This document shows positions 4,197 to 32,000 of a DNA stretch of 32,000 bases, piece after piece. A program made the translations under genes and the position numbers. The DNA is from Edaphobacter aggregans. GTDB lineage: Bacteria; Acidobacteriota; Terriglobia; Terriglobales; Acidobacteriaceae. Location: the NCBI RefSeq assembly GCF_003945235.1, contig NZ_RSDW01000001.1, forward strand, positions 3,030,001 through 3,062,000. The letters are read 5' to 3'. How positions within the stretch are numbered: position 1 is the stretch's first letter; each line of letters opens with the position of its first letter. The notes beneath the pieces are model-generated. The model ran no database searches. It saw only the letters and a list, made by a program, of their open reading frames with translations, and was not told the origin of the DNA.

Positions 4197-4360
4197 CTTG
4201 GGCTCCTGGGACTCCTGAGTAGCAATCGTCACGGTCGGTCTCTCCGGGTTTGAATCGTAGCTGCTGGCCAAACTGTACACCGAATGGGGTAGTGGATGCA
4301 GCAGGGCAGCCGTCTGCTTGATTCTAGGGGCGAAGGCCACCCGAAGGCGACAGATTTATT

Positions 4361-4685
4361 TGTGGAAAGCCGGGACGCTATGTGCGACGCCGGGAATAAC
4401 TGGAGTGCGGGCCAGCACGAGTCTGGCGCCCAGCGATCACGTGTGTTGCGGTTGGGTACGACTGCCTGCGGCGCGAGTGCTTCTAAGAATTAAGACTTTA
4501 AAGAAGATAGATACCAGTAGCCTTAACCGTTGTCGCTTGAAAAGTGGATAACTGTCCCATCTGCTTATAAGTCATCGAGTTGGAGTACCATCCAGTTTTA
4601 GAAAACTAGACAAGAGAAGACGCAAAGGTAGGAAGAGTAGCCGAAGATCTGGTTACCCTGTACCGGCATATCCCACTTCTCCACA
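4361..4685. promoter_or_regulatory. DnaA-box-like motifs in the 640-bp AT-richer spacer upstream of dnaN
   Basis: TGTGGAAAG at 4361-4369 (7/9 to TGTGGATAA). AGTGGATAA at 4543-4551 (8/9). TTCTCCACA at 4677-4685 (8/9 to TTATCCACA). AT-rich stretch TTCTAAGAATTAAGACTTTAAAGAAGATAGATA at about 4480-4512. Confidence 0.4.
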
Positions 4686-4837
4686 ATGCCGAGTGACAGC
4701 CGTTGAGAAGACACACACTGATTCGTGGGAATGTTGATCAAATGAAATGGAATCATTCATTTAGCTAAACCTTTAATTTCACAGGCTCATCGAAACGCAG
4801 AGGATAATGTGTCCGAATTACCAAAGGAGACGTTGCC

Positions 4838-5476
4838 ATGAAGATCGCCATCTTCGGTGCCAGTGGAGCGACGGGTCAGCTACTGACGGAGCGTTGCCTG
4901 GGTGCGGGTTACAGCGTCACGGCACTCCTGCGAAGGCCGGATAACTTCGCGCAGCGTGACCGGATACGCGTGGTGCAGGGAAGCGCGTTTGATGCCGCGG
5001 CTGTTCGAGAGACCGTCGAAGGATCGAATGTTGTGTTGTCAGTGCTAGGAGCTCGCTCACTCAAAAAAGAGGATGTGCTGGAGCAGGCCGTACCCCTGAT
5101 CGTCGCCGCGATGAAGCAGACTGGAGTGCGGCGGATTATCGCGCTGGGCTCGGCAGGGGCACTCCCCGATTCACTGAAGAAACAGCCAACGTGGCGCAGG
5201 TGGATCGTCGAAAATATCGTGTACAAGACCATGCTGAAATGGCCAGTGGCATCGCAGATATCCCAATATGCAACGCTCTCTTCGAGCGGCCTCGACTGGA
5301 CCATGGTGATGCCCCCCATGCTCACCAACACGCCGGGACGCGGTGTATACCGGATCGACGGCGAGGCGCTACCTCGCAATGGAAGCAAAATCTCACGGGA
5401 GGACGTAGCAGACTTCATGATGAGCCAGATCGACTCACGAGAGTGGGTCGGCAAGGGCGTGTATATCTCGTACTAG
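4838..5476 (+). CDS. NAD(P)H-binding oxidoreductase (NmrA/BVR-B-like atypical SDR)
   Basis: N-terminal Rossmann motif MKIAIFGASGATGQLL. AGGAG lies 8 nt upstream of the ATG. Confidence 0.75.
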   Translation: MKIAIFGASGATGQLLTERCLGAGYSVTALLRRPDNFAQRDRIRVVQGSAFDAAAVRETVEGSNVVLSVLGARSLKKEDVLEQAVPLIVAAMKQTGVRRIIALGSAGALPDSLKKQPTWRRWIVENIVYKTMLKWPVASQISQYATLSSSGLDWTMVMPPMLTNTPGRGVYRIDGEALPRNGSKISREDVADFMMSQIDSREWVGKGVYISY

Positions 5477-5490
5477 TCCTGACTCAGGCG

Positions 5491-6927
5491 TTAGGGCGTG
5501 GACCGCGCCGCTACCCGTGTATTCACCTCACGCTCCACGCGATCGAGATCCTGAGCCACCAGGTGCCCTCGTTCGACTTTCAGTTCGCCGCCCACATAGA
5601 CACGCTCAAGGTCTGGCTGACTGGTGACAAAGACCAGCGTTGCATACGGATCGAAGACATGCCCGTAGTCGCTAGGGTCGATCACGAGAAAGTCGGCGAA
5701 CTTGCCCTTCTCGAGGCTGCCCAGGCGATCAGCGACCCCCAACACATCGGCACTGCCCATCGTGTGCAGCTTCAAGACGTCATAGGGACTCATCACGCCG
5801 GCATTCTCGTACTTGTCTCGGATCGCGTAGAGCCCGGTTCGCAGGTTCTCGAACGGATCGGCCAGATCCGCGCTCGCCTCGCCATCGACGCCCATTCCGA
5901 CCCTAACCCCGGCCTTCAAGTAAGCAGGAATATCCGCCACACCCGAAGCCAGCCTGCCATTCGAGAGCGGGTTCCAACTCATCGCTGCACCTGCCTTGGC
6001 CGTTGCAGCAATGATTATCGGGTCAGTGTGGATGAAGTGTCCGAAGATCATCCTGTTGGTGACCAGGCCCGCATCGGTGAACGCCTGGAAGAGTTTGCGG
6101 TCCTCCACCTGTGTCTCCGGCTGCTCAAGATAGTGGCTCTGATTGCCCAGATCGAACTCCTTCATCAGCGCGGCCTCCATCAAGGCCTGCGTCCCGGCCT
6201 GTTTTGGCGTGTCGGTAAAGGCCGTGCCGCCGTTGATCATCACCGAGAGCAGCTTGCCTCTCGTCTGCGGATCCTTGCTGGCTTGTTGGACCGCCACCCA
6301 GTCGAGAAAGGTCTTGAGCCGTTTACGAGCATCCTCCAGCCCATAGGTTGCGGTCGCCCTTCCGGGCTCCAATCCAAAGACGAACCGGAAGCCAGAGTCC
6401 ATCTGGCCGCGATACTCCTGTTCGGCGAACTCGACCGCCTGCTCCGGCGTGTGGCCACCGTAGTTGAAGCTGTAGGCCGAAGTCACGCCATGCCGCAGGT
6501 GGTCAAGCGAGCCCTCAAGCGTAAACCAGTAGAGGTCCTCTGCGGTCGCCTTGGTCGCTGCCTTGCCATACAGCTCGTCGATCCATCCCAGCAGCGTCTT
6601 ATCCGCCGCGAGGCCGCGATAGGCCGACTGCCACAGATGGCTATGCGCCGAGATGAAGCCTGGAATCACCCAGTGCCCCTTCGCGTCCCACACCGTCGCG
6701 GCCTTCAGCGAGGCAGGAGGTTCACCCTTACCCACGGCAAGAATTCTGCCATCGGCCCCCACGGCAAGGAACCCAGTAAAAGGTTCTCGCTCCGACGAGG
6801 CCATCGAAAAGATATAAGCGTTCCGTACCACAAGCTTCGCCGGGATCTGCGCAGCCGCTCGCAGCGACGTCAGGATCCCCAGCAGGCACACAACAAACAT
6901 CCAGACCAGACGCGAAAGGAAGTTCAT
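5491..6927 (-). CDS. Secreted metal-dependent amidohydrolase family protein
   Basis: Signal peptide MNFLSRLVWMFVVCLLGILTSLRAAAQ. Amidohydrolase-type segments PGFISAHSHLW and GMGVDGEAS. Confidence 0.75.
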   Translation of the reverse strand: MNFLSRLVWMFVVCLLGILTSLRAAAQIPAKLVVRNAYIFSMASSEREPFTGFLAVGADGRILAVGKGEPPASLKAATVWDAKGHWVIPGFISAHSHLWQSAYRGLAADKTLLGWIDELYGKAATKATAEDLYWFTLEGSLDHLRHGVTSAYSFNYGGHTPEQAVEFAEQEYRGQMDSGFRFVFGLEPGRATATYGLEDARKRLKTFLDWVAVQQASKDPQTRGKLLSVMINGGTAFTDTPKQAGTQALMEAALMKEFDLGNQSHYLEQPETQVEDRKLFQAFTDAGLVTNRMIFGHFIHTDPIIIAATAKAGAAMSWNPLSNGRLASGVADIPAYLKAGVRVGMGVDGEASADLADPFENLRTGLYAIRDKYENAGVMSPYDVLKLHTMGSADVLGVADRLGSLEKGKFADFLVIDPSDYGHVFDPYATLVFVTSQPDLERVYVGGELKVERGHLVAQDLDRVEREVNTRVAARSTP

Positions 6928-8921: not shown

Positions 8922-10355
8922 TTAGCTCAGTGTCTCCATCAGCTTGTTGATGGTACGGTTGAGATCCTTATCCGTCCGCCGCTGCTCATCGATCTTCGCA
9001 ATCGAATGCATGACAGTGGTGTGGTGCTTGCCGCCGAACTGCCGTCCAATCTCCGGCAGTGATGCCTCGGTAAGCTGCTTAGCAAGGTACATCGCGATCT
9101 GGCGCGGTACAACGATCTGGCGTGAGTTGTTCTTCTGCTTCAACTCGGCCACACGCATGCCGAACTGCTCGGCCACGGTGCGTTGGATCGTCTCGATCGT
9201 AATCTTCCGCACCTGCGTGTCGATGAACTGCTTGAGGCATTGCTGCGTGACCGCCAGCGTGATCTCGACGCCATGCATCGAGCACCAGGCGATCAGTCGC
9301 ACCAGCGCACCCTCAAGCTCACGCACATTGGTCCGCACGTTCGATGCGATGAACAGCGCCACATCGGTCGGCAGCGACGTCTGCTCGCTCTCAGCCTTCT
9401 TCTGCAGAATCGCAACCTTGGTCTCGAGATCAGGCGGTTGAATGTCCGCGATCAGTCCCCACTCGAAGCGCGAGCGCAGGCGGTCTTCAAAATCAGCAAG
9501 CTCTTTCGGCGGCCGGTCGCTGGCGATCACGATCTGCTTCATGCTCTCGTGCAGCGCGTTGAAGGTATGGAAGAACTCCTCCTGCGTCCGCTCCTTGCCC
9601 GCGAGGAACTGGATGTCGTCGATCAACAGCACGTCCACGTTGCGGAACTTGTCGCGGAAGCTGGTCATCTTGTCATAGCGGACCGAGTTGATCATCTCGT
9701 TAGTGAACTTCTCGCCCGAGACATAGCAGATCGACGCGTGCGGCTGCCTGCGCTTCACGTCGTGACCAATGGCATGCATCAGGTGGGTCTTGCCCATGCC
9801 GACGCCGCCGTAGAGGAAGAGCGGGTTGTAAGCCTTCGAAGGCCGTTCCGCAACAGCCTGCGCCGCGGCCATGGCGAACTGATTGCCACTGCCGATCACG
9901 AACGCATCGAACTGATAGCGCGGGTTGAGCTGCGACGCGGCATTCCAGTCGAAGCGAGACTGCTCAGGAGCAGGCCCTGTCGGAGCACCTGTGTTGAGGC
10001 TGCCCATGCGACTCTGTCGCGGCGCGTTCTGGCTGTGGCTCGGCACCGGAGCAAAGCCGCCGTCCTCGCGAACCTTCGGCGCGCGCGGATCCTGCTCAGG
10101 AGTGGTAAACGTCACCGAATCAACGTCGAGGCCGAGATTGTCGATCGCTTCCTGAATCAAATCGGCGTATCGATCGCCTACATGCTGGAAGTCGACGGAG
10201 GGTATCCGCACGAAGAGCTTCTTTCCCTCAAGGTGGGAGAATCGCGTTGGCTTCAACCAGGTCTCGTACGACTGCCGATTGATCTTCTTCTCGAGAGCCG
10301 CCAGGATGCGAACCCAGTAATTCAACACGGCCGTTGCCGTCGGAACGAATGACAT
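8922..10355 (-). CDS. dnaA: Chromosomal replication initiator protein DnaA
   Basis: Walker A motif YGGVGMGKTHL, an AAA+ core, and the C-terminal DNA-binding helix-turn-helix region GGKHHTTVMHSIAKI. Confidence 0.97.
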   Translation of the reverse strand: MSFVPTATAVLNYWVRILAALEKKINRQSYETWLKPTRFSHLEGKKLFVRIPSVDFQHVGDRYADLIQEAIDNLGLDVDSVTFTTPEQDPRAPKVREDGGFAPVPSHSQNAPRQSRMGSLNTGAPTGPAPEQSRFDWNAASQLNPRYQFDAFVIGSGNQFAMAAAQAVAERPSKAYNPLFLYGGVGMGKTHLMHAIGHDVKRRQPHASICYVSGEKFTNEMINSVRYDKMTSFRDKFRNVDVLLIDDIQFLAGKERTQEEFFHTFNALHESMKQIVIASDRPPKELADFEDRLRSRFEWGLIADIQPPDLETKVAILQKKAESEQTSLPTDVALFIASNVRTNVRELEGALVRLIAWCSMHGVEITLAVTQQCLKQFIDTQVRKITIETIQRTVAEQFGMRVAELKQKNNSRQIVVPRQIAMYLAKQLTEASLPEIGRQFGGKHHTTVMHSIAKIDEQRRTDKDLNRTINKLMETLS

Positions 10356-14191: not shown

Positions 14192-14250
14192 AGAGTGCGC
14201 CTGCATTCTTGCGGCACAGCCTCGGTTTCACAAAGAATAGGAAGTTTCAC

Positions 14251-16044
14251 TTGGCAGAGTTTAAGAACCCCAATCAGCAGGGCGGCGGGCAGGACAGCCG
14301 GTCCTTCCTCGTCATGGTCGTTGTCATGGTCGCCGTCTTCTTCGGCCTTCAGTTCTTCCGCTCGAAGAACCCCCAGACTGTGACGCCCTCGGCGCCTGCG
14401 ACGACACAAAGCGCGCCCGCCCCGACTGCAACTCAGCCCGGAGCAGTTGCACCAGCCGTAGCAGCAGCCACACCAACTCCGTCCGCTGTGCCCGCCGTCA
14501 AAGCCACAGCTGAAGAGACCACCACCGTCGAAAACGAGCTCTACCGCATCACCTTCACCAACCGCGGCGGCCGTGTCGCGACATGGATTCTAAAGCAGTT
14601 CCGCGACAGCGACGGCCACCCGCTCGACCTGGTCCACCATCAGGCGGCGGAGCCCTTCGGCCACCCGCTCTCGCTCTACACGTACGAGCCCGCCCTCACC
14701 ACGGCGGTCAACGACGCAATGTACGTCCCTTCTGCGACCGGCAACCTCGCCGCGCCCGCGACCCTGACCTTCAAATACTCCGAAGGCAACCTCGAAGTCA
14801 TCAAGACCTTCTCCTTCGACGAGACCTACCTCCTGCACGCCGACGTTCAGGTCCTTCGTAACGGCACACCTGTTCGTGCGCTTATAAGCTGGCCCGGCGG
14901 CTTCGGCGATCAGGACAACGCACAAGCCTACGCAAGCGCTCAGCTCGACTTCTCGCGTGACGGCAGCTCAACCCATCTGGCCCCCAAGAAAGTCTCAGGT
15001 GGCGATACCCTCAACGGCCCATTCGACTGGGCGGGCGTCAGCAGCAACTACTTCGCCGCTATCTTTCTGCCCGACGCACCGGCGACCTCGACCGTCGCTA
15101 CCTTTCACAACCAGCTCGACGTAGCCAAGACCATCCGTCGCACCGGCCTGGGCAGCGGCTCGCCCGCTAAGGGGTCCATCGAGGTCTCGATCCTCGGCGC
15201 CGCGCTCGGTGACGTCAACGGCCACACCCAGACACGCGTTTACGTTGGCCCCAAGGCCGTCAACGTTCTCCGGAACATCCGCGCCACCGGCAGCAACGTC
15301 ACGCTGGAACCGCTACTCGACTTCGGCTTCTGGGGTCCGATCGGCAAGTACCTCTTCCTCGCGCTCCAGTTCATCCACACCCACATCACGTCGAACTGGG
15401 GATGGGCGATCGTCATCCTCACCCTTATCGTCAACACGCTCATCCTGCCTCTCCGTATCAAGACCATGCAGAGCGGCCTGAAGATGCAGCGCATCCAGCC
15501 TCAGATGGACGCCATCAAGGAGAAGTACAAGAAGTACAAGGCCACCGACCCCAAACGCAACGAGATGAACATGGAGATCATGAAGCTCCAGAAGGACAAC
15601 GGCGTCAACATGTTTGGCGGCTGCATCCCGACTCTCGTGCAACTCCCGCTGCTGTTCGCCTTCTTCAGCATGCTCCCCCGCGTCGTCGAGCTGCGTCACG
15701 CGCACTGGCTCTGGGTCCCCGACCTGACCTCTCCCGACCCCTTGCACATCCTGCCCATTCTCATGGTGCTTAGCTCCTTCCTGATGCAGTACTACACGCC
15801 GTCGCCGGGTGTCGATCCGCAGCAGCAGAAGATGATGGCCTTTACCATGCCAGCCGTCACCGGCTACTTCGTCTGGAACTACGGCGCCGGACTCGGACTC
15901 TACTGGGCCGTCGGCAACCTCTTCGGCATCGCGCAACAGATGGTGATGAACCGCACCTCGCTCGGCCGGGAGATGCGCGAGATCGCCGCCAAACGCGCCC
16001 GTCGCAAGGCCGGCGCACCGGCTACACTGCAAGGCAAGCGCTGA
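14251..16044 (+). CDS. yidC: Membrane protein insertase YidC
   Basis: Large periplasmic P1 domain plus the conserved C-terminal core (WGWAIVILTLIVNTLILPL, QPQMDAIKEKYK, GGCIPTLVQLPLLFAFF, YWAVGNLFGIAQQ). The probable start is TTG 14251 ((M)AEFKNPNQQ), with AGGAAG 7 nt upstream. The track start at 14209 is also TTG. Confidence 0.92.
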   Translation: MAEFKNPNQQGGGQDSRSFLVMVVVMVAVFFGLQFFRSKNPQTVTPSAPATTQSAPAPTATQPGAVAPAVAAATPTPSAVPAVKATAEETTTVENELYRITFTNRGGRVATWILKQFRDSDGHPLDLVHHQAAEPFGHPLSLYTYEPALTTAVNDAMYVPSATGNLAAPATLTFKYSEGNLEVIKTFSFDETYLLHADVQVLRNGTPVRALISWPGGFGDQDNAQAYASAQLDFSRDGSSTHLAPKKVSGGDTLNGPFDWAGVSSNYFAAIFLPDAPATSTVATFHNQLDVAKTIRRTGLGSGSPAKGSIEVSILGAALGDVNGHTQTRVYVGPKAVNVLRNIRATGSNVTLEPLLDFGFWGPIGKYLFLALQFIHTHITSNWGWAIVILTLIVNTLILPLRIKTMQSGLKMQRIQPQMDAIKEKYKKYKATDPKRNEMNMEIMKLQKDNGVNMFGGCIPTLVQLPLLFAFFSMLPRVVELRHAHWLWVPDLTSPDPLHILPILMVLSSFLMQYYTPSPGVDPQQQKMMAFTMPAVTGYFVWNYGAGLGLYWAVGNLFGIAQQMVMNRTSLGREMREIAAKRARRKAGAPATLQGKR

Positions 16045-22621: not shown

Positions 22622-22882
22622 ATGCAGGTCTTATGCAAGCTGTCCGATAACTCCCCCGATGTTCAATGTCCCGTCTGCGGTCAGGGCTTTCTCCTTTACT
22701 GGGAACGCTCCTCGCGCACCCAGCAGGAGGCCACCCGCCACAGCATCCAGCAGACGCTCCGCGACCACCACGCCGACAACACCACTGCGGAAGCCCACCC
22801 CGAAGCCGCCTTCAACATTCCCAGCTGGTCTGGCTCACCCAAGTTCTCCGCCGCCGCCCTTCTCGGGGGAGCCCCCGTCTAG
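22622..22882 (+). CDS. Hypothetical small protein (86 aa) with a single CPVC motif
   Basis: AAGGAA lies 4 nt upstream of the ATG. I recognise no family. It is divergent from thrS. Confidence 0.45.
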   Translation: MQVLCKLSDNSPDVQCPVCGQGFLLYWERSSRTQQEATRHSIQQTLRDHHADNTTAEAHPEAAFNIPSWSGSPKFSAAALLGGAPV

Positions 22883-22895
22883 ACCAGAAAACCTA

Positions 22896-22992
22896 CACCG
22901 ATGAAACACCGATCAAAACCCCAAAAAGGGCCGTTGTCTTAATCTGTTTTTTTGATCTGTCTCTAAATCGGTGTCATCGGTGAAGATCGGTG
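22896..22992. repeat. Inverted heptad-array element: 2x CACCGAT on the left, 3x ATCGGTG on the right
   Basis: CACCGAT at 22896 and 22907. ATCGGTG at 22967, 22976 and 22986 (spacing 9 and 10 bp). The right arm TAAATCGGTGTCATCGGTGAAGATCGGTGTTAAGTAT recurs at 31333-31368. Confidence 0.7.
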
Positions 22993-23021
22993 TTAAGTAT
23001 CTCTGCACCAACACCTTCCAC

Positions 23022-23057
23022 CCAACCACTTAAAAAATTAGGACCGCTGCTAGCCCA
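23022..23057 (-). terminator. Rho-independent terminator (minus strand)
   Basis: The minus strand reads GGACCGCTG-TTGGGCTAG-CAGCGGTCC followed by TAATTTTTT. Confidence 0.75.
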
Positions 23058-23131
23058 ACAGCGGTCCAAGTACTCAGTCTTTTGCGGGGAAACCTTATTG
23101 CTACTGCTGAAACCTGCCTCTGAAACCTGGT

Positions 23132-23266
23132 TCAGGCTGCCTTCGGAACAGTGTCGACGGTTCTCTCCGCCGGCATGTTCTTCCTCAGCCACACATTAGC
23201 CCTCCACCGTCCAAAAAACGGAGCAGCGGCAACCAATGCAAACGACACTGCTAAAGCAATGCGCAT
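23132..23266 (-). CDS. Small (44 aa) hydrophobic protein, unrecognised family
   Basis: Hand translation: MRIALAVSFALVAAAPFFGRWRANVWLRKNMPAERTVDTVPKAA. AGGAGA lies 7 nt upstream of the ATG, and a strong terminator follows at 23022-23057. It is below the ORF track cutoff. Confidence 0.4.
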   Translation of the reverse strand: MRIALAVSFALVAAAPFFGRWRANVWLRKNMPAERTVDTVPKAA

Positions 23267-23520
23267 CCACATCTCCTTTCTCCCCAGCGGGCCAACTTCT
23301 CCCACCGAGTCGAAGCACCCGGACCGCCTCTTGCATACAACTGGCCGGTCCGGACTTGATCACTGCAATTGCAATACGCTAACTATCTCGCCCCCGAACC
23401 AACCTCGATATCCCCCCTCCGGGCCACTGGCCGAACATTCGGGTTATCCGCCTATCCCACCTTCGTGTTATCTGCACCATACCCATCACCCCCGGCGTTC
23501 CCATCGCCTAAAATACCTCC

Positions 23521-25026
23521 ATGTCCTACATCGCAGCCGTCGATCATCTCTACGCCCTCGGGCACGAGCTGGCCCCGGCCCCGAACGCCACCTCACCCGC
23601 CGAGCCCCGCCGCAAATTCGATCTCGCCCACATGCGCGCCCTGGCCGCAGCCCTCGGCGATCCCCAAACCACCTTCCCCTCCATCCTCATCGCTGGAACC
23701 AACGGAAAAGGCAGCACCGCCTCCACCCTCGCCAGCATCCTCACCGCCGCCGGCTACCGCACCGCCCTCTACACCTCCCCGCACCTATCCCGCGTCAACG
23801 AGCGCATCCAGATCGACGGCCAACAAATCCCCGACGACGACTTCGCCCGCCTCTACTTCCAGGTCGACGACACCGCCCGCCGCCTCGTCCGCGAATCCGT
23901 CCTCCCGCACCACCCCAGCTTCTTCGAAACCCTCACCGCCCTCGCCTTCCTCTATTACGCCGAGCAACACGTCGACATAGCCATCCTCGAAGTAGGCATC
24001 GGAGGCCGCCTCGACGCCACCAACATCGTCGACCCCCTCCTCTCCATCATCACCGACATCGCCCTTGACCATCAGGACTACCTCGGCAACACCATAGCCG
24101 AGATCACCCGCGAAAAAGCCGGCATCCTCCGCCCTAACGGCACCCTCATCACCCTCCCACAGCACCCCGAAGCCAACCAGGCCATCGGCGAAGTCGCCGC
24201 CACCCTCCACATCCACGCCATCAGCGCCGCCCCCTACATCCCCCACACCCCTATCAGGCAAACACCTGCCGTTACCTCTAATGCTGTCATTCTGACCCTG
24301 AGCGAGCAGAGCGACTCGAAGGGGAACAACCCCGGCATTCCGCCGGCAGAGCTGCAACTCCCCCACAACCACTACAGCCTCACCCTCGCCGGCCAGCCCC
24401 TGGAAATCAACTCCGCCCTAACCGGCCAGCACCAGCAGCGAAACATTGCTTTAGCCATAGCCGCTGCCGAAGAATTACGTAACCCAATAGGTTACAATAT
24501 AGCAATAAGTAACCAACACGGTTACAAAATAACCAACTCCCAAATCGAAGAAGGAATCCGCAAAACCCGCTGGCCCGGCCGTCTCGAGCTACTCCGCTTC
24601 CCCGAAGGACCCACCCTCCTGCTCGACGTAGCCCACAACCCCGCCGGAGCCTGGACCCTCCGCGCCGCCATCGCCCAGCTCCCCGAAACCCAGCCCCGCA
24701 CCCTCCTCTTCTCCTGCCTCCGCGACAAAGACCTCCGCGAGATGACCCAGATCCTCCTCCCCCTCTTCGACTCCAGCGCCGACCGCCCCCACGACCACAT
24801 CCTCTTCGCGCCCATCGACAATCCCCGCGCCACCACGCTCGACGAGCTCACCGCCGCCGCCACAGCGCTCGACATCCCCGCCCAAACCGCGCCAAGCATC
24901 GCCGAAGCCCTCACCCAGGCCCGCGCCATTACCCCCACCGACGGCATCATCCTTGCCACCGGCTCCATCTACATGGTCGGCGCAATCCGAACCCTCGCCC
25001 TCAACGGAGGCGCGAACCCCGCATGA
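23521..25026 (+). CDS. folC: Bifunctional folylpolyglutamate synthase / dihydrofolate synthase
   Basis: Mur-ligase P-loop GTNGKGST, with DIALDHQDYLGNT, GQHQQRNIALAIAAAE and WPGRLE. At 501 aa it is longer than typical FolC because of two internal insertions (see findings). Confidence 0.92.
   Translation: MSYIAAVDHLYALGHELAPAPNATSPAEPRRKFDLAHMRALAAALGDPQTTFPSILIAGTNGKGSTASTLASILTAAGYRTALYTSPHLSRVNERIQIDGQQIPDDDFARLYFQVDDTARRLVRESVLPHHPSFFETLTALAFLYYAEQHVDIAILEVGIGGRLDATNIVDPLLSIITDIALDHQDYLGNTIAEITREKAGILRPNGTLITLPQHPEANQAIGEVAATLHIHAISAAPYIPHTPIRQTPAVTSNAVILTLSEQSDSKGNNPGIPPAELQLPHNHYSLTLAGQPLEINSALTGQHQQRNIALAIAAAEELRNPIGYNIAISNQHGYKITNSQIEEGIRKTRWPGRLELLRFPEGPTLLLDVAHNPAGAWTLRAAIAQLPETQPRTLLFSCLRDKDLREMTQILLPLFDSSADRPHDHILFAPIDNPRATTLDELTAAATALDIPAQTAPSIAEALTQARAITPTDGIILATGSIYMVGAIRTLALNGGANPA
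24284..24346. repeat. Copy A of a ~63-nt dispersed repeat, in frame inside folC
   Basis: CTGTCATTCTGACCCTGAGCGAGCAGAGCGACTCGAAGGGGAACAACCCCGGCATTCCGCCGG matches 25036-25098 with about 6 mismatches. Confidence 0.85.
24479..24538. repeat. AT-rich 30-bp tandem duplication with GTAACC/GGTTAC hairpins inside folC
   Basis: GTAACCcaataGGTTACaatatagcaataa is followed by GTAACCaacacGGTTACaaaataaccaact. GC is about 30% in a gene that is visibly far more GC-rich. It encodes NPIGYNIAIS / NQHGYKITNS. Confidence 0.75.
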
Positions 25027-25035
25027 CCTCAAAGC

Positions 25036-25098
25036 CTGTCCTTCCGACCCTGAGCGAGCAGAGCGAATCGAAGGGGCACAACCCCCGCATTCCGCCGG
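25036..25098. repeat. Copy B of the ~63-nt dispersed repeat, at the folC/plsC junction
   Basis: CTGTCCTTCCGACCCTGAGCGAGCAGAGCGAATCGAAGGGGCACAACCCCCGCATTCCGCCGG. Confidence 0.85.
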
Positions 25099-25115
25099 TC
25101 GAGGCACCTACCTCA

Positions 25116-25904
25116 ATGGAAGACACCATTTCATCCGAGTCTCCAAAACCCTCCGCGAAGCCCCCAGCCTCCTTCGCCCTCCGCTGGCTGACCTACCTCA
25201 TCTTCATCCCACTGATGACCCTCTCGACAGTCTTCTTCGGCTGCATCTCTCTCCTCTGCGGCCTATGGGACAAATCCGGCCGCCAGCAGCACTACATCGC
25301 CCACCTCTGGGCCCGCAGCCTGCTCTTCATCACACTCTCCCCCGTCACCCTCATCAATAAAGAGAAGCTCCACGAACACGAGACCGCCGTCTACGCCTCC
25401 AACCACCTCAGCTACATGGACACCCCCGTCCTCTTTGCCAAGCTACCCTTCCAATTCCGCATCCTCGCCAAACAAGGCCTCTGGAAGGTCCCCTTCATCG
25501 GCTGGTACCTCAACCGCTCCGGCCAGGTCCCTGTCGACCAGTCCAGCGCCCGCCTCGCCATAGCCAGCCTCAACCGAGGCGTCCAAACCCTCAGACACGG
25601 CCTACCCCTCGTCCTCTTCCCCGAAGGAGGCCGCGCCGCCGACGGCCGTACTCACCCCTTCCTCTCCGGTTGCGCCTACATGGCCATCAAGGCCCAGGTC
25701 CCGCTCGTCCCCATCACCCTTATCGGCACCTACGAACTCCTACCGATCCACACCTACCACCTCAAACCCCGCCCCCTCGCCATCATCGTAGGCGACCCCA
25801 TCCCCACCGCCGGCCTATCCACCCGCGACGCCGACGCCCTAACCCAGCGCCTCTACGAAACCATCACCACCACCTACATGCAAAACCAACCGACCACGGA
25901 TTAA
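25116..25904 (+). CDS. plsC: 1-acyl-sn-glycerol-3-phosphate acyltransferase
   Basis: NHxxxxD motif (ASNHLSYMDTPVL) and FPEGGR motif. Start is ambiguous. ATG 25116 (MEDTISSE...) lies after repeat copy B. The track start at 25023 overlaps the folC stop in ATGA and would translate the repeat. Confidence 0.85.
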   Translation: MEDTISSESPKPSAKPPASFALRWLTYLIFIPLMTLSTVFFGCISLLCGLWDKSGRQQHYIAHLWARSLLFITLSPVTLINKEKLHEHETAVYASNHLSYMDTPVLFAKLPFQFRILAKQGLWKVPFIGWYLNRSGQVPVDQSSARLAIASLNRGVQTLRHGLPLVLFPEGGRAADGRTHPFLSGCAYMAIKAQVPLVPITLIGTYELLPIHTYHLKPRPLAIIVGDPIPTAGLSTRDADALTQRLYETITTTYMQNQPTTD

Positions 25905-25928
25905 ACATGTGGAATCTGCCTTTGCCTT

Positions 25929-26014
25929 AATCCGTCTTTAGCCTTTGCTTATCCGCCTTTATCCCTCTGATCACCGTTACGCCTTAAAATCCGCGCCCAT
26001 CCGTGAAAATCCGC
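25929..26014. repeat. ATCCGYG-type heptad array (decayed cassette copy without intact parS)
   Basis: ATCCGTC at 25929, ATCCGCC at 25950, ATCCCTC at 25960, ATCACCG at 25969, ATCCGCG at 25988, ATCCGTG at 25998 and ATCCGCG at 26008. The spacings are 21, 10, 9, 19, 10 and 10 bp. Confidence 0.7.
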
Positions 26015-26031
26015 GGTCGCCCAGTCGTATC

Positions 26032-26823
26032 ATGGACTTCACCATGATTCCCCGCATAGCCATTCCGATCCCCACCAGCACTGACCCCGACTACAACGCC
26101 AAATCCTGGCACCAATACGCCGAAGCCGTCACCCGGGCCGGCGGCATCCCCGTCGAAATCCCCCTCAACGCCACCCCCCGCGAGACCGCCGACCTCATCA
26201 ACACCTGCCAGGCCGTCCTTCTCCCCGGCTCCCCCGCCGACGTCAACCCGCAAAAGTACGGCCACGACCCCATCCCCGAGTGCAACCCCGCCGACCCCGC
26301 CCGCGAAAACGTCGACGAACTCCTCATCCAGGACGCCCACAACCTCTACAAACCCATCCTTGCCATCTGCTTCGGTACCCAATCCCTCAACGTCTGGCGC
26401 GGCGGAACCCTCATCCAGGACCTCGCCCCCATGCCGGTCAACCATCCCGCTGGCCGCAGCGTAGCCGTCGCCCACACCGCCGCCGTCGCCCCCGACTCCC
26501 TCCTCGGCACCATCATCCCCTCCGAAGAAGCCCCCGAGCAGGACGGATTCCTCCGTCTTCCCATCAATTCCAGCCACCACCAAGCCATCGGCATCCCCGG
26601 CGACGGCCTCCGCATCGCCGCCCGCTGCCCCCAGGACGCCGTCATCGAAGCTATAGAAGGCGGCCAGGACGCCACCAACCCCCACGCCCACTTCGTGCTA
26701 GGCGTCCAATGGCACCCCGAGCGCAGCTATGACATCTCCCCCGCCTCCAGAGCCCTCTTCGAGCGCTTCATCTCCGAAGCCGCCGCCTGGATCCCCCGCC
26801 CCATCCACACCTCCGTAGCCTGA
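26032..26823 (+). CDS. Class I glutamine amidotransferase, peptidase C26 / gamma-glutamyl-GABA hydrolase-like
   Basis: Nucleophile elbow ILAICFGTQSLN, with HHQAI and GVQWHPE. Start trimmed to ATG 26032 (MDFTMIPRIAIPIP). Confidence 0.85.
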   Translation: MDFTMIPRIAIPIPTSTDPDYNAKSWHQYAEAVTRAGGIPVEIPLNATPRETADLINTCQAVLLPGSPADVNPQKYGHDPIPECNPADPARENVDELLIQDAHNLYKPILAICFGTQSLNVWRGGTLIQDLAPMPVNHPAGRSVAVAHTAAVAPDSLLGTIIPSEEAPEQDGFLRLPINSSHHQAIGIPGDGLRIAARCPQDAVIEAIEGGQDATNPHAHFVLGVQWHPERSYDISPASRALFERFISEAAAWIPRPIHTSVA

Positions 26824-26830
26824 CCCTCAA

Positions 26831-26846
26831 TGTTCCACGTGGAACA
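26831..26846. other. parS: parS centromere-like site 1 (perfect 16-bp palindrome)
   Basis: TGTTCCACGTGGAACA against the parS consensus TGTTNCACGTGAAACA. There is one symmetric difference. Confidence 0.85.
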
Positions 26847-26942
26847 CCCAGACACCCGACCACGGATAGACACCGTTTTGGTCCTTAAATCCGTCTTTAT
26901 GCTTTTTATCCGTGTCCATCCGCGCCAATCCGCGGTCGAAAA

Positions 26943-26958
26943 CGTTCCACGTGGAACA
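26943..26958. other. parS: parS centromere-like site 2
   Basis: CGTTCCACGTGGAACA, containing the 14-bp perfect palindrome GTTCCACGTGGAAC. It lies 20 bp upstream of the rsmG ATG. Confidence 0.8.
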
Positions 26959-26978
26959 TCTGCCATACTTAACCCGCG

Positions 26979-27590
26979 ATGCCCCTCTCCGAATCCCAGA
27001 TCGCCGCCCTCCTAACCCCCTATCTCGCCCCGGTCCCCCCGCCGAAGAACATGATGCCCCGGCTCTCCACCTATCTCGACCTTCTCCTCAAGTGGAACGC
27101 CCGCACCAACCTCACCGCCATTCGCGACCCCGAAGAGATCGTCCGGCGCCACTTCGGCGAAAGCCTCTTCGCCGGCCAGCACCTGGGCACTCCGCTCCCC
27201 GAAACCCTCCTGGATCTGGGCTCCGGAGCAGGCTTCCCCGGCCTCCCCATAGCCATCCTCCACCCCGATCTCCCAGTAACCCTGGCCGAATCCCAGAACA
27301 AAAAGGCTACCTTCCTCCGAGAAGTAGCCCGCACCCTCGAACTCCCCAACGTAGAAATCTGGGCCGCTCGAGCCGAATCTCTCCCCCCAACCCGCAAATT
27401 CCACACCGTAACCCTCCGAGCCGTAGACAACATGGCCGCCGCCCTAACCGCCGCCGCCCCCCGAGCCACCCACCAACTCCTACTCCTCACCAGCACAATC
27501 CCAACCCTCCCCCCCGAATTCACCCCCAACCCACCCATCCCCATCCCCAAGACCCAAACCAGCATCCTCCTCCAAGCCACCCGTACGTAA
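26979..27590 (+). CDS. rsmG: 16S rRNA (guanine527-N7)-methyltransferase RsmG (GidB)
   Basis: LLKWNARTNLTAIRDPEEIVRRHFGESL plus the SAM-binding motif LDLGSGAGFPGLPIAI. Confidence 0.92.
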   Translation: MPLSESQIAALLTPYLAPVPPPKNMMPRLSTYLDLLLKWNARTNLTAIRDPEEIVRRHFGESLFAGQHLGTPLPETLLDLGSGAGFPGLPIAILHPDLPVTLAESQNKKATFLREVARTLELPNVEIWAARAESLPPTRKFHTVTLRAVDNMAAALTAAAPRATHQLLLLTSTIPTLPPEFTPNPPIPIPKTQTSILLQATRT

Positions 27591-27592
27591 AA

Positions 27593-27608
27593 CGTTCCAC
27601 GTGGAACA
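27593..27608. other. parS: parS centromere-like site 3
   Basis: CGTTCCACGTGGAACA, beginning 2 bp after the rsmG stop codon. Confidence 0.8.
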
Positions 27609-27728
27609 CTCAGACACCCGACCACAGATCCACACGGATAAAAACACAGCCCGTAAAGCCCTAAGCCTTTAAATCCGTCTTTCAAGCTTTTAAAATCCGT
27701 GCTCATCCGCGCCAATCCGCGGTCGCAA

Positions 27729-27744
27729 CGTTCCACGTGGAACA
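27729..27744. other. parS: parS centromere-like site 4
   Basis: CGTTCCACGTGGAACA. Confidence 0.8.
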
Positions 27745-27748
27745 AAAG

Positions 27749-27887
27749 TTTTCCACACCATCCGGCCCCAAACCCCTCCATTCCCGCAGCATTTTCGCCC
27801 TTCCACAAGTTCTCCACAGACTCGGACCCTTCTCCACAACCCCTCCCGCCTTGCTCCCAGCTCATCGGCCCGATACCCTTCTCCATA
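27749..27887 (+). promoter_or_regulatory. Cluster of same-orientation DnaA-box-like motifs upstream of parA
   Basis: TTTTCCACA at 27749-27757. CCTTCCACA at 27799-27807. TTCTCCACA at 27810-27818. TTCTCCACA at 27830-27838. TTCTCCATA at 27879-27887. The consensus is TTATCCACA. Confidence 0.45.
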
Positions 27888-27892
27888 CGCCG

Positions 27893-28861
27893 ATGATCAC
27901 CATTCACCCCAAAAACAAGCCCCTCCCGCAGCCCGCAACTGCAGAAACCCCAGAGACCCCGGCCACCACACCCGAGACCCCTAAACCCTCCAAGGTCATC
28001 GCCGTGGTCAACCAGAAGGGCGGCGTCGGCAAAACCACGACAGCCATCAACTTAGCGGCGTCCTTGGCTCTCGAAGGCCTCCCAACCCTCCTCATCGACT
28101 GCGACCCCCAGGCCAACACCACCGGAGGCCTCGGTTTCGGCCGTGACGACGCCCGCCCCAGCATCTACGACCTCCTGATGGACCATCACGCCGCCGACAA
28201 GGTCATCGTCCCGACCGACGTCGACAACCTCTCGCTCATCCCCGGCAGCAAGAACCTCATCGGCGCCAACATCGAGCTCGTCGCCCAGGACCGCCGCGAG
28301 TACCGCCTCCGCGACGCCCTCGCCCCTGTCCGCGCCAACTACCCCTTCATCCTCCTCGACTGCCCCCCGGCCCTCGACCTCCTCACCCTCAACGCCCTCG
28401 TAGCCGCCGACGGCCTCCTCGTCCCTATGCAAGCCGAGTACTTCGCCCTCGAAGGCATCTCCGAGCTAATGTCCACGCTCGACCGCGTCACCCAGTCCTT
28501 CAACTCCTCCCTCGCCCTCGAGGGCGTCCTCCTCACCATGTACGACGACCGCACCAACCTATCCCAGCAGGTCACCGAGAACCTCACCTCCTTCTTCACC
28601 GACAAGCTCCTCAAGACCAGCATCCCCCGCAACGTCCGCCTCGCCGAAGCCCCAAGCCACGGCAAGCCCGTCGCCCTCTATGACTCCAAATCCCGAGGAG
28701 CCGAAGCCTACCGCGAACTAGCCCTCGAACTCCTAGCCCGCAACAATATGGAGAGCCCCGAGGTAGCCCGCCGCCGAGCCGCCGCAGCCGCCGCAGCCAG
28801 CGCCCTCAAATCTTTCACCAAACCCGAAAAGAAGCACCGATTCTGGCAATCCAGCAAATAG
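27893..28861 (+). CDS. parA: Chromosome partitioning ATPase ParA (Soj)
   Basis: Deviant Walker A motif VVNQKGGVGKTTTAINLA. Start trimmed to ATG 27893. The track start at 27737 is a GTG inside parS site 4 and adds an implausible 52-aa leader. Confidence 0.93.
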   Translation: MITIHPKNKPLPQPATAETPETPATTPETPKPSKVIAVVNQKGGVGKTTTAINLAASLALEGLPTLLIDCDPQANTTGGLGFGRDDARPSIYDLLMDHHAADKVIVPTDVDNLSLIPGSKNLIGANIELVAQDRREYRLRDALAPVRANYPFILLDCPPALDLLTLNALVAADGLLVPMQAEYFALEGISELMSTLDRVTQSFNSSLALEGVLLTMYDDRTNLSQQVTENLTSFFTDKLLKTSIPRNVRLAEAPSHGKPVALYDSKSRGAEAYRELALELLARNNMESPEVARRRAAAAAAASALKSFTKPEKKHRFWQSSK

Positions 28862-28976
28862 CCACGCCGTTACTCCTTACTCAGAACTCGTTCTCGCGAT
28901 TCTCGTTCTTAGGTAAACCGCAAACCACCTTTGCCACACATAAAACCGCTACCTAACCACCAGTGAGCCACCGAAA

Positions 28977-29903
28977 ATGCCAACCGCCACACACGATCCC
29001 AAACGCCGCGCCCTGGGCAAGGGCCTTGAATCCCTCCTTCCCGCCCGTCCGGCCACCCCGCCGCCCGCGCCCGTAACCCATGTAGAATCAAACGGAAAAC
29101 CCCTCGAAATCCCCCTCGACCACATCGAGCGCAACCCCTGGCAGACGCGCACCCAGTTCGACGAAGCAAAATTACAGGAACTGGCCCAGTCCATCGTCGT
29201 CTCCGGAGTTGTGCAACCCATTGTAGTCAGGCCACTTAGCCAAAAAAATGGTGAGGCCCGATACCAGCTCATCACCGGCGAACGCCGCTGGCTAGCCAGC
29301 CGCAAGGCCCAAAAAACCACCATTCCCGCCATAGTCCGCCAAGTCGCTGATGAGCAAGTACTTGAGATGACCATCATCGAAAATCTCCAGCGCGCCGACC
29401 TCAACCCCATGGAGCAAGCCCGGGCATATCAACGACTTAGCCAGGACTTCCAGCTCACCCAGGAACAGATGGCCACCCGAACTGGCAAAGAACGAGCCAG
29501 CGTAGCCAACTTCCTTCGTTTGTTGAAGTTACCCGAAACCGTCCAGCAAAAAGTAGAATCCGGCGACCTCTCCTTCGGCCACGCCCGCACCCTCTTAGCC
29601 TTAGAGTCCCCGGAATCAATCACTTCCGCCGCCCTAAAGGTCCTGGCTCTCTCCCTCTCCGTCCGCCAGACCGAAAGCTACGTTCAAAACCTGATCAACC
29701 CAGAAGCCAAACAAAAGAAAGAAGATAAGCAACAAGCTCAACCCGAAGATCCCAACGTCCGCGAAGCCCAGGACCGCCTCCAGCGCACACTAGGCCTAAA
29801 AGTCCGCATAGAAGACAAAAAAGGCAAAGGCAAAGTAATCATCGAATACTCCGGCTTAGAAGACTTCGACGCCATCCTCACCGCACTCGGTCAAGAAAAA
29901 TAA
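28977..29903 (+). CDS. parB: Chromosome partitioning protein ParB (Spo0J)
   Basis: KRRALGKGLESLLP, with the ParB box and arginine patch LITGERRWLASR and an HTH region. Confidence 0.93.
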   Translation: MPTATHDPKRRALGKGLESLLPARPATPPPAPVTHVESNGKPLEIPLDHIERNPWQTRTQFDEAKLQELAQSIVVSGVVQPIVVRPLSQKNGEARYQLITGERRWLASRKAQKTTIPAIVRQVADEQVLEMTIIENLQRADLNPMEQARAYQRLSQDFQLTQEQMATRTGKERASVANFLRLLKLPETVQQKVESGDLSFGHARTLLALESPESITSAALKVLALSLSVRQTESYVQNLINPEAKQKKEDKQQAQPEDPNVREAQDRLQRTLGLKVRIEDKKGKGKVIIEYSGLEDFDAILTALGQEK

Positions 29904-29926
29904 TCCGCAAGAACGAGAAAACGCCC

Positions 29927-31219
29927 ATGCGCAAACTCTATTTGCTCCTCATTTTGTTACAAATTGCATCACTCTCCGCTGCCGCCCAAACCACAGCAAC
30001 AACCCGCACCCTTCTGCGCACAGGCCACATCCTCAATGTAAAAACCGGAGCGGAACCCGCTGCCCAGACCATCATCATCACCGGCGATCGCATCACCGCC
30101 ATCGCCTCCACGGCCTCCACACCCAAGCAATCCGGCGACACCGAAATCGACCTCACAAAATACACCGTCATGCCCGGCCTGATTGACGTGCACACGCACC
30201 TCACCATGGCCAACAACTTCGATCCCTACTTCGAACTCTCCATGACGCCTGCAAAAGAGGCCATCATCGGAGTAGAAAACGCCAAGGTCACCCTCGAAGC
30301 CGGCTTTACCACCGTCCGTAACGTCGGCGCCAACGACTTCACCGACGTAGCCCTCCGCGACGAGATCAACGCCGGTCACGTCCCCGGCCCGCACATGCAG
30401 GTCTCCGGTCCCGCCCTCGGCATCACCGGCGGCCACATGGACGAAAACCTTCTCCCCTACGAGTACCACGCCCACGGCCAGGGCGTAGCCGACGGCGTCC
30501 CCGCCGTCCAGCATCAGGTCCGCGAGAACATCAAATACGGCGCCGACCTCATCAAGATCGCCTCCACCGGCGGCGTCCTCTCCAAGGGCGACGACCCGCA
30601 AGCCAGCCAGTACACCATGGAAGAGCTCCAGGCCATCGTCGCCGACGCCCACCGCCTCGGCCGCAAAGTCGCCTCGCACGCCCACGGAGCACAAGGCATC
30701 CTCTGGGCCACCGAAGCTGGCGTCGACTCCATCGAGCACGGTTCCTACATCAACGACGAGTGCATCGCAGCCATGAAGAAACGTGGCACCTACCTCGTCC
30801 CCACCGCCTACCTCGTCGACTGGATGCGCGAGAACGGCCATCTCCCCGCTCTCTACCAGCAAAAGATGACAGACGTCAGCGCCGCCATGAAGGCCAACCA
30901 CAAGCGCGCCATCGCCGCCGGCGTCAAAGTGGCGCTAGGCACCGACGCCGCCGTCTACCCCCACGGTCTCAACGCCCACGAGATCGACGTATACGTCAAT
31001 CAATACGGCATGTCCCCGCTCGCCGGCATTCAGACCGGCACCATCAACGCCGCCGACCTCATGGGCTGGACCGACCGTGTAGGCACCATCGAACCCAACA
31101 AATGGGCCGACATCATCGCCATCGAAGGCGACCCGCTCAAAGACGTCCGTCTTCTCCAGCACGTCCCCTTCGTCATGAAGTCGGGCGTTGTCTACAAAAA
31201 CGAGACCAACAAGCAATAG
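29927..31219 (+). CDS. Secreted metal-dependent amidohydrolase (imidazolonepropionase / Xaa-Pro dipeptidase-like)
   Basis: Signal peptide MRKLYLLLILLQIASLSAAAQ. Metal-binding motif PGLIDVHTHL, with ASHAHG and LGTDA. Confidence 0.8.
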   Translation: MRKLYLLLILLQIASLSAAAQTTATTRTLLRTGHILNVKTGAEPAAQTIIITGDRITAIASTASTPKQSGDTEIDLTKYTVMPGLIDVHTHLTMANNFDPYFELSMTPAKEAIIGVENAKVTLEAGFTTVRNVGANDFTDVALRDEINAGHVPGPHMQVSGPALGITGGHMDENLLPYEYHAHGQGVADGVPAVQHQVRENIKYGADLIKIASTGGVLSKGDDPQASQYTMEELQAIVADAHRLGRKVASHAHGAQGILWATEAGVDSIEHGSYINDECIAAMKKRGTYLVPTAYLVDWMRENGHLPALYQQKMTDVSAAMKANHKRAIAAGVKVALGTDAAVYPHGLNAHEIDVYVNQYGMSPLAGIQTGTINAADLMGWTDRVGTIEPNKWADIIAIEGDPLKDVRLLQHVPFVMKSGVVYKNETNKQ

Positions 31220-31254
31220 CCACCCGCGTGCCCCATTTGTCTTGTGCTATCAGC

Positions 31255-31361
31255 CTCTATCCCTCGGATCACCGTTACGCCTTAAATCCGCGCCCGTCCG
31301 CGCTCATTCGTGTTCGCGTCGTCGCCTGTTCTTAAATCGGCGTTATCGGTGACAATCGGTG
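31255..31361. repeat. Composite heptad-array element (ATCCGCG-type followed by ATCGGTG-type)
   Basis: TATCCCTCGGATCACCGTTACGCCTTAAATCCGCGCCCGTCCGCG matches 25958-26004. It is followed by ATCGGCG at 31336, ATCGGTG at 31345 and ATCGGTG at 31355, which matches 22967-22992. Confidence 0.75.
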
Positions 31362-31428
31362 TTAAGCATTCGAGTTTCTGGACAGTCTCCAAGAAAGCCA
31401 CGCAAAGGATTCCCGCGCCTCGCGCCCC

Positions 31429-32000
31429 ATGTTAAAAGCCTCAGCCTTCGAGTTCCGCTTCCGCTTCCTCCTCCACGCCATCCTTTACGCCCTTGGCTTC
31501 ACCACGCCATGGAACCACTGGCTTCATCTCGACACCATCCGCACCTGGCAATATCTTGCCGCGATCCCTTCACGCGCAGGATGGCTCTCCTTCGTTGCCG
31601 CTACCAACGCAGTCCTCATCCTGGGAATCCTCTGCGCCCTCGCCGCCGCCCTTCTGCGCACCTGGGGCTCAGCCTACCTCGGAGCCTCCATCGTCAAAGA
31701 TGCCTCCATGCACGCCGATCGCGTCGTTGCTGCTGGGCCCTACCGTTATCTGCGCAACCCGCTCTACCTCGGCACCTTCATCCACACGTTGGCTCTCGCG
31801 CTCCTCATGCCACCGAGCGGAGCCATCTTCGCCATCCTCACCATCGGCTTCCTGCAACTCCGCCTCATCGCCGGCGAAGAGTCTTACCTCACCGAGCAAC
31901 AAGGCGCACCCTACCTCGCCTATTGCGCCAAAGTCCCCCGCCTCATCCCCGCACTCACCCCGCGAGTTCCCGCCTCGCCCGCGCAACCCAACTGGCCACA
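31429..32000 (+). CDS. Isoprenylcysteine carboxyl / phospholipid methyltransferase family membrane protein (partial, runs off the window)
   Basis: Hand translation MLKASAFEFRFRFLLHAILYALGF...GPYRYLRNPLYLGTFIHTLALALL...AGEESYL. It is open to the end of the window, so it is absent from the ORF track. Confidence 0.7.
   Translation, partial: MLKASAFEFRFRFLLHAILYALGFTTPWNHWLHLDTIRTWQYLAAIPSRAGWLSFVAATNAVLILGILCALAAALLRTWGSAYLGASIVKDASMHADRVVAAGPYRYLRNPLYLGTFIHTLALALLMPPSGAIFAILTIGFLQLRLIAGEESYLTEQQGAPYLAYCAKVPRLIPALTPRVPASPAQPNWP

Follow-up and report, generated by a model that had tools for sequence, protein, structure and literature searches.

In the origin region of Edaphobacter aggregans, the gene rsmG lies between two short homologous cassettes, each of which begins and ends with a parS site and encloses a phased array of heptads, which raises the question of what such paired-parS modules are: an ordinary centromere, a composite one, or a mobile element carrying parS. 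We analyzed this locus within a 32,000-nucleotide stretch of contig NZ_RSDW01000001.1 (positions 3,030,001 to 3,062,000 of the forward strand), hereafter called the window, in whose coordinates all positions are given. Our favored reading, which we consider likely as a whole, is that this is an ordinary origin-proximal centromere in which a passenger hairpin acts as filler between paired parS sites, and in which the parS-bounded segment was duplicated or converted.

As for the parS sites, the 14-mer GTTCCACGTGGAAC occurs exactly four times in the window (at 26832, 26944, 27594, and 27730). At up to two mismatches, the chance expectation in a shuffled window is 0.09 matches, and none of 100 shuffles reached five; a fifth match in the window, with two mismatches, lies at 18665. 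The corresponding 16-mers, which start at 26831, 26943, 27593, and 27729, all fit the 16-bp palindrome consensus tGTTNCACGTGAAACa, the exact forms being TGTTCCACGTGGAACA and CGTTCCACGTGGAACA. The sites and the genes that define their setting are as follows.

3045–4340, minus strand: dnaN (Pfam)
8922–10355, minus strand: dnaA (Pfam)
14209–16044: yidC (Pfam)
26821–26823: TGA stop codon of the C26/GATase gene
26831–26846: parS1, TGTTCCACGTGGAACA, 7 bp past the C26/GATase stop, identical to the Pseudomonas aeruginosa parS
26943–26958: parS2, CGTTCCACGTGGAACA, 20 bp ahead of the rsmG ATG
26979–27590, plus strand: rsmG (GidB; Pfam), with its ATG at 26979 and its TAA stop at 27588–27590
27593–27608: parS3, 2 bp past the rsmG stop
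27729–27744: parS4, directly upstream of a conserved block that precedes parA
27893–28861, plus strand: parA (Pfam AAA_31/CbiA)
28977–29903, plus strand: parB (Pfam ParB_N, HTH_ParB, and ParB_C)

The parA start codon was set at 27893 from the sequence and its conservation in relatives, the open reading frame (ORF) itself opening at 27737. In P. aeruginosa, TGTTCCACGTGGAACA is the validated parS 16-mer, and Myxococcus xanthus uses its 14-mer core as parS (PMC4368675, PMC5098823, PMC3899335). The ParB encoded in the window, with GERRWLA and an N-terminal LGKGLESLL, is a canonical helix-turn-helix (HTH) ParB whose GERR motif agrees with the cytidine triphosphate (CTP)-binding box GERRxR. An exact look-up of this protein returned no record. 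Since dnaA, dnaN, and yidC all lie in the window, this is the origin region, and the parS cluster is 17 kb from dnaA. Because the sites are identical to a validated parS, sit beside a canonical parB and 17 kb from dnaA, and keep their positions in relatives (see below), we take them to be parS and the cluster to be real and conventional, i.e., an ordinary origin-proximal multisite centromere. A sequence-only reading of this DNA, made earlier by a model without database searches, had placed the four copies exactly and had given the distances to the neighboring genes correctly (7, 20, and 2 bp); its identification of GidB/RsmG, ParA, and ParB agrees with Pfam.

If the system works as other ParABS systems are known to, the ParB encoded 1.2 kb downstream would nucleate at the four sites and spread from them as a CTP-dependent clamp. 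Two of the sites come right after stop codons. The remaining two immediately precede the promoter regions of rsmG and parA and may allow ParB to modulate both promoters as well. In particular, parS2 lies just upstream of a −10-like CATACT (26964–26969), at the position expected for the −35 element of rsmG, and in relatives parS is followed by a conserved −10-like TCTGAGATACTGA ahead of rsmG; ParB bound at parS2 may occlude the rsmG promoter. In M. xanthus, about 22 parS sites lie beside parAB. The P. aeruginosa parS1–4 and M. xanthus clusters resemble that of the window in their core (TGTTCCACGTGGAACA and GTTCCACGTGGAAC), in having several sites near parAB and the origin genes, and in their canonical HTH ParB. 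They differ in that the window sites, known here from sequence, form two pairs that tightly bracket rsmG, each enclosing an unrelated hairpin repeat.

The positions of these sites can be followed in relatives. A metagenome scan with the RsmG protein yielded 80 Acidobacteriaceae-like loci (58–99% identity), many on contigs too short to hold both flanks. Among the loci in this RsmG-anchored set that are long enough, most show between one and three parS sites within the 400 bp that precede rsmG, and one or two downstream of the gene. The first site after rsmG is most often 5–16 nt beyond the stop codon, and where parA follows rsmG directly, a second lies just ahead of the block conserved upstream of parA. 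Spacer sequences between paired sites bear no relation to one another across loci; some are short and unique, some consist of a different repeat, and some hold a heptad hairpin. Whether the cassette is conserved around rsmG, a question raised by the sequence-only reading, has a divided answer: parS at the rsmG flanks is normal for this family, being present in most of the loci long enough to show it, and the spacer between paired sites is not conserved.

We then turn to what the cassettes contain. Cassette 1 (26831–26958, 128 bp) and cassette 2 (27593–27744, 152 bp) align with each other in the internal order that had been described, and their homology does not extend beyond the outer ends of the flanking parS sites. 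That earlier description of the interior was incomplete, since it missed both its inverted-repeat nature and several arrays without parS elsewhere in the window (31286–31312, and the ATCGGTG-type arrays at 22896–22992 and 31336–31361). The copies are as follows.

22896–22992, plus strand: hairpin of the ATCGGTG variant, with inverted units at 22896 and 22907 and direct units at 22967, 22976, and 22986
25891–26020, plus strand: third hairpin-repeat copy, lacking parS, its left arm overlapping the acyltransferase stop codon, with an inverted unit at 25895 and the right array at 25989–26015
26847–26942, plus strand: cassette 1 interior, an ORF-less heptad-array hairpin repeat
26857–26867: left arm of cassette 1, CGACCACGGAT, then TAAATCCGTCTTT, with an inverted CACGGAT at 26861
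26908–26934: right array of cassette 1, ATCCGTG-N3-ATCCGCG-N3-ATCCGCG, then GTCG
27609–27728, plus strand: cassette 2 interior, the same heptad-array hairpin repeat
27619–27639: left arm of cassette 2, CGACCACAGAT-CCA-CACGGAT, with an inverted CACGGAT at 27633
27695–27721: right array of cassette 2, then GTCG
31248–31369, plus strand: two arrays without parS, of the ATCCGCG type (31286–31312) and the ATCGGTG type (31336–31361)

The arrays at 26908–26934, 27695–27721, and 25989–26015 all show the pattern by which we define the family: at least two to three ATCCGYG heptads in 10-bp phase, ending in GG(T/C). The opposite arm consists of inverted heptads, CRCGGAT, found at 26861, 27633, and 25895, with CGACCACGGAT opposing ATCCGCGGTCG. 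Since the left arm is the inverted form of the right heptads, the interior is an imperfect inverted repeat. When folded as RNA, cassette 2 is far more stable on the minus strand (−51.8 kcal/mol, z = −6.35) than on the plus strand (−19.8 kcal/mol), the A.C mismatches of the plus-strand arms being G.U on the minus strand. The sense (plus-strand) folds of the two cassettes reach −22.8 and −19.8 kcal/mol, with z of about −2 and −1.5, and the 22896–22992 hairpin folds on the minus strand with z = −4.4. Rfam gave no match at gathering score for the whole window and no relevant match at E ≤ 10 in 22800–31500.

The third copy had also been described as a decayed cassette retaining a parS half-site. 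It is a genuine copy of the hairpin repeat, and the half-site, ACATGTGGAAT at 25906, is not a remnant: it lies inside the hairpin, past the left arm, whereas the parS of the cassettes is outside, before the left arm, and it is most simply due to chance. Other readings of the heptads were dropped. The cassettes do not qualify as oriC, the heptad TTATCCGTG deviating from the DnaA box TTATCCACA at three positions, and neither a CsrA sponge nor a Pho-box-like element fits motifs that are stem-paired, that follow stop codons genome-wide, and that have a phase of 10 rather than 11 bp.

The same repeat is found far beyond this locus. Scanning one genome per species for three phased ATCCGYG heptads returned at least 120 genome stretches, where our own uniform-composition estimate gives a chance expectation of about 2. 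The stretches listed come from Acidobacteriota, Verrucomicrobiota, Planctomycetota, Pseudomonadota (several proteobacterial classes), Chloroflexota, Spirochaetota, Nitrospirota, Bacteroidota, Chlamydiota, and others. Among these listed matches, inverted heptads lie within 160 nt of 84 of 139 arrays (about 60%), with loops of 7–150 nt; the arrays are mostly intergenic, often beginning 10–30 nt from a stop codon; divergent gene pairs are under-represented (12 of 99 classified gaps); and the parS 14-mer is in none of 120 array stretches. Between opposite arms, 62% of the positions in the spacer triplets are complementary, compared with 43% in shuffled pairings. What is conserved is the heptads themselves rather than a perfectly paired stem. 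By its sequence, the interior of the cassettes is an ORF-less member of this very widespread family of inverted repeats. The heptad array is also in 103 viral or prophage contig stretches (L211–L290, e.g., IMGVR_UViG_3300037067_012809 and IMGVR_UViG_3300037755_001323), and some 45-kb contigs have eight or more arrays. In the literature we found no description of the heptad repeat, or of its link to the gene family considered below.

Clustering the ORFs of the 120 listed array loci produced one informative family, of about 140 amino acids, matching TIGR04256 (GxxExxY) and PF13366 (PDDEXK_3), and no other recurrent neighbor gene. Among the matches listed, all four GxxExxY ORFs in array-selected loci are bracketed, by inverted heptads on the 5′ side and direct heptads on the 3′ side. 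In L048, for example, arrays at 5757–5783 (minus) and 6198–6224 (plus) enclose the ORF at 5762–6184. Further bracketed genes are in L007 (2658–3125), L201 (9945–10423), and L204–L210, and orthologs of one of the four ORFs, located between ispD and ispF in Terriglobia, keep both arrays at 75–84% protein identity. Array-bracketed GxxExxY genes are frequently found as insertions between housekeeping genes (ispD-ispF and fabD-fabG, for example).

Two further samples of the family point to the same link. Seven GxxExxY genes were collected by tblastn of plasmids and chromids on protein similarity alone, and inverted heptads flank six of them, four with arrays of at least two phased units and two with one heptad per side. 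The heptad differs by lineage, being ATCCGTG/ATCCGCG in Gemmatirosa, Treponema, and a fusobacterium, CTCTGTG in Bacteroides and Bernardetia, and CTTCGCG in Sphingomonas. Moreover, since the period is 10 nt, a translated array yields the peptide pattern IR..P..S(A/V). This tail is found near the C terminus of 16 of 150 family representatives sharing less than 50% mutual identity (0.4 in shuffles), and the reverse-strand peptide signature in 13 of 150 (2.3 in shuffles). A survey lists PDDEXK_3 as of unknown function, with multiple transfers.

Neither the window nor any RsmG-anchored locus contains a GxxExxY ORF (TIGR04256/PF13366), and the ORF-less copies in the window have loops of about 30–55 nt. 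They look like miniature derivatives or, alternatively, like hairpins into which GxxExxY genes insert. The hairpin may be mobile. Its relation to the GxxExxY-bearing copies could be that of repetitive extragenic palindromes (REPs) to RAYT genes, or of miniature inverted-repeat transposable elements (MITEs) to their parent elements. Like the heptad repeat, REPs and bacterial interspersed mosaic elements (BIMEs), with their RAYT (TnpA-REP) genes and REPtrons, are short intergenic palindromes dispersed in many copies, found mostly at gene 3′ ends and flanking, in inverted orientation, a small nuclease-type gene. The partner here is a PD-(D/E)XK GxxExxY protein, whereas RAYT is a Y1 HUH transposase; the heptad arms are 10-bp-phased arrays, whereas a REP is a single GTAG-led palindrome. 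MITEs such as Correia and Nezha are similar in that ORF-less short copies share inverted arms with ORF-bearing copies. In contrast to them, the heptad arms vary in unit number by 10-bp slippage, and we found no evidence of target-site duplications or empty sites.

The duplicated paired-parS cassette is therefore a parS-bounded segment filled with an ORF-less, GxxExxY-associated hairpin repeat. Why there are two alike is best seen at the junctions. The linker between parS and the hairpin, C(C/T)CAGACACC, is identical at 9 of 10 positions between the two cassettes; the third copy and the relatives have a different sequence there. Both cassettes, and also L126/L130, share the right junction GGTCG-(A)AAC-parS. 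The shared linker and right junction argue that the whole parS-bounded segment was duplicated or converted, as opposed to two independent insertions, and the parS-linker-hairpin-parS segment was probably duplicated or gene-converted between the rsmG flanks. The downstream cassette goes deeper, being present in L166/L182 and decayed in L126/L130. Compared with the window, contig L121 (96.8% identity) carries an additional 10-bp unit in the cassette 2 left arm; since the difference is one such unit, the arrays change by unit slippage, and after a duplication they would drift by gain or loss of 10-bp units. Between 25041 and 27031, the window and L121 show only two differences in about 2 kb, against several percent in the flanks, a pattern suggestive of recent exchange of this segment.

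Relatives have tandem duplications of parS plus other spacers: L146 (1796–2040), L188 and L180 (around rsmG), and also L170, the spacers in L146, L188, and L180 being other repeats. In L170 (3576–5800), about 20 parS sites spaced by roughly 55–105 bp lie on both sides of rsmG. In these lineages the parS-bounded segment is the unit of duplication and amplification.

Several observations weigh against the favored reading. First, arrays are in 10 of 93 parS-bearing gaps and in 2 of 188 others (Fisher p = 4e-4; de-duplicated RsmG-anchored loci plus the window), a result inflated by the shared ancestry of the nonindependent rsmG flanks of related genomes and based on a crude gap prediction. Second, the base of the hairpin is 8–10 nt from parS in several lineages. 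Third, all six window arrays are within 22.9–31.4 kb, with none in 1–22 kb. Finally, the cassette borders show no target-site duplication, and no pair of empty and filled sites was found among close relatives. The association between arrays and parS is stronger than a pure passenger model predicts. A bolder proposal, which we advance tentatively and hold to be possible rather than probable, is that the hairpin and the GxxExxY gene form an undescribed selfish or mobile system spanning phyla. Its PD-(D/E)XK protein would recognize the phased heptads, and ORF-less copies would preferentially settle, or be retained, beside parS in that part of the Acidobacteriaceae origin region to which ParB binds, with a possible influence on the partition complex.

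If the arrays were instead part of a composite centromere, they would bind a second factor (a GxxExxY-type or other DNA-binding protein) or extrude a cruciform and thereby shape the partition complex, for instance as a roadblock confining sliding ParB clamps to the DNA between paired parS or as an aid to SMC loading. Such a role is suggested by the enrichment in parS-bearing gaps just described, and by the recurrent 8–10 nt distance, seen in several lineages and on both rsmG flanks. The 10-bp phasing, the strict heptads, and the partly complementary spacers also suggest protein recognition on one face of the DNA rather than a plain RNA stem. However, these arrays are common in many phyla where no parS is near them, the paired parS of most relatives enclose unrelated spacers, and four window arrays are in gaps without parS. 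The geometry and orientation are variable as well: parS is 8–10 nt outside the left arm in the window, L166, L148, and L159, but is inside the loop in L134; in L143 and L145 inverted arrays lie between two parS, in L163 and L133 the hairpins are 30–80 nt away, and where hairpin and parS co-occur the hairpin is found in either orientation. The partition modules closest in appearance, the type Ib/II plasmid centromeres bound by ParR, ParG, or omega, also have short direct repeats at about one helical turn beside a partition operon. Yet no gene for a ribbon-helix-helix centromere-binding protein is adjacent here, the window ParB is a type Ia HTH protein, and the same heptad arrays are found far from partition genes in many phyla. 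We therefore regard a partition role of the arrays as possible but unsupported, and the composite centromere as unlikely.

It is similarly improbable, in our view, that the hairpins are terminators, insulators, or stabilizers of mRNA 3′ ends that separate the transcription of the C26/GATase gene, rsmG, and parAB, with parS merely co-located in short gaps. The intergenic placement of the arrays across phyla, often some 10–30 nt from a stop codon, their scarcity between divergent genes, and the fact that every window hairpin comes after the end of a plus-strand gene would all be expected of such elements. But no U-tract follows the stems, a terminator scan was negative at the cassettes, the sense RNA folds weakly and the antisense far better, and across phyla the heptads keep their sequence instead of covarying.

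As for a MITE-like element with parS termini that spreads centromere sites around the chromosome, which the sequence-only reading had raised, the interior does look like a small and possibly mobile repeat, the cassettes are bounded exactly by parS, where homology stops, and L134 has parS within the hairpin loop, but a parS carrier is very hard to reconcile with the absence of parS from the 120 listed array stretches, the four window arrays without parS and the lack of any other cassette or parS in the 32-kb window, the parS positions kept in relatives that have no hairpin, their unrelated spacers, and the want of a visible target-site duplication.

The ordinary centromere with its passenger hairpin, which we favor, is accompanied by a further conserved element between parS4 and parA. 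This block, conserved in about a dozen relatives, holds the densest cluster of DnaA-box-like sites in the window, followed by a candidate promoter.

27749–27838, plus strand: co-oriented DnaA-box-like 9-mers, TTTTCCACA and then TTCTCCACA twice, each one mismatch from TTATCCACA
27851–27879, plus strand: candidate parA promoter, TTGCTC-17-TACCCT, proposed from the sequence and from the conservation of TTGC..GATACCCTTCT

By our own reading, a fourth and weaker box, CCTTCCACA, is at about 27799. Three other DnaA-box-like sites (4361, 4543, and 4677) are in an AT-rich gap of 500 bp upstream of dnaN (4340–4838), and no DnaA box with one mismatch or fewer is found upstream of dnaA. The dnaA and dnaN genes are 4.6 kb and several genes apart.

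In the rest of the window, Pfam also identified thrS and genes for a FolC-like ligase, an acyltransferase, the C26/GATase, and an amidohydrolase. GC skew on the plus strand between 23000 and 29000 is very strongly negative, at −0.36 to −0.48 per kb, and more so than in the other plus-strand gene stretches of the window. A 78-nt repeat is present in two copies that are 87% identical, one (24274–24351) within the FolC-like ORF, in its Mur_ligase_M region, and the other (25026–25103) at the junction of folC and the acyltransferase gene. A strong terminator-like hairpin with a T-run is on the minus strand at 23041–23067, in a 640-bp stretch with no confident gene (22883–23520) between a small ORF (22622–22882) and the FolC-like gene.

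For the field of chromosome segregation, these findings are mostly reassuring: they add a parS cluster from a phylum that has received little study, and its core matches that of Pseudomonas and Myxococcus. The most interesting outcome is a repeat family of inverted arrays of 10-bp-phased heptads, defined by its sequence, that extends from Acidobacteriota to Spirochaetota and to viral contigs and systematically brackets GxxExxY genes. Translation of the arrays accounts for odd tails in predicted proteins (IRVHPR.SA and similar), and the link to GxxExxY proteins gives a testable hypothesis for their function, namely recognition of heptad arrays. If the enrichment of arrays beside parS is real, it would point to an interplay between a selfish repeat and a bacterial centromere.

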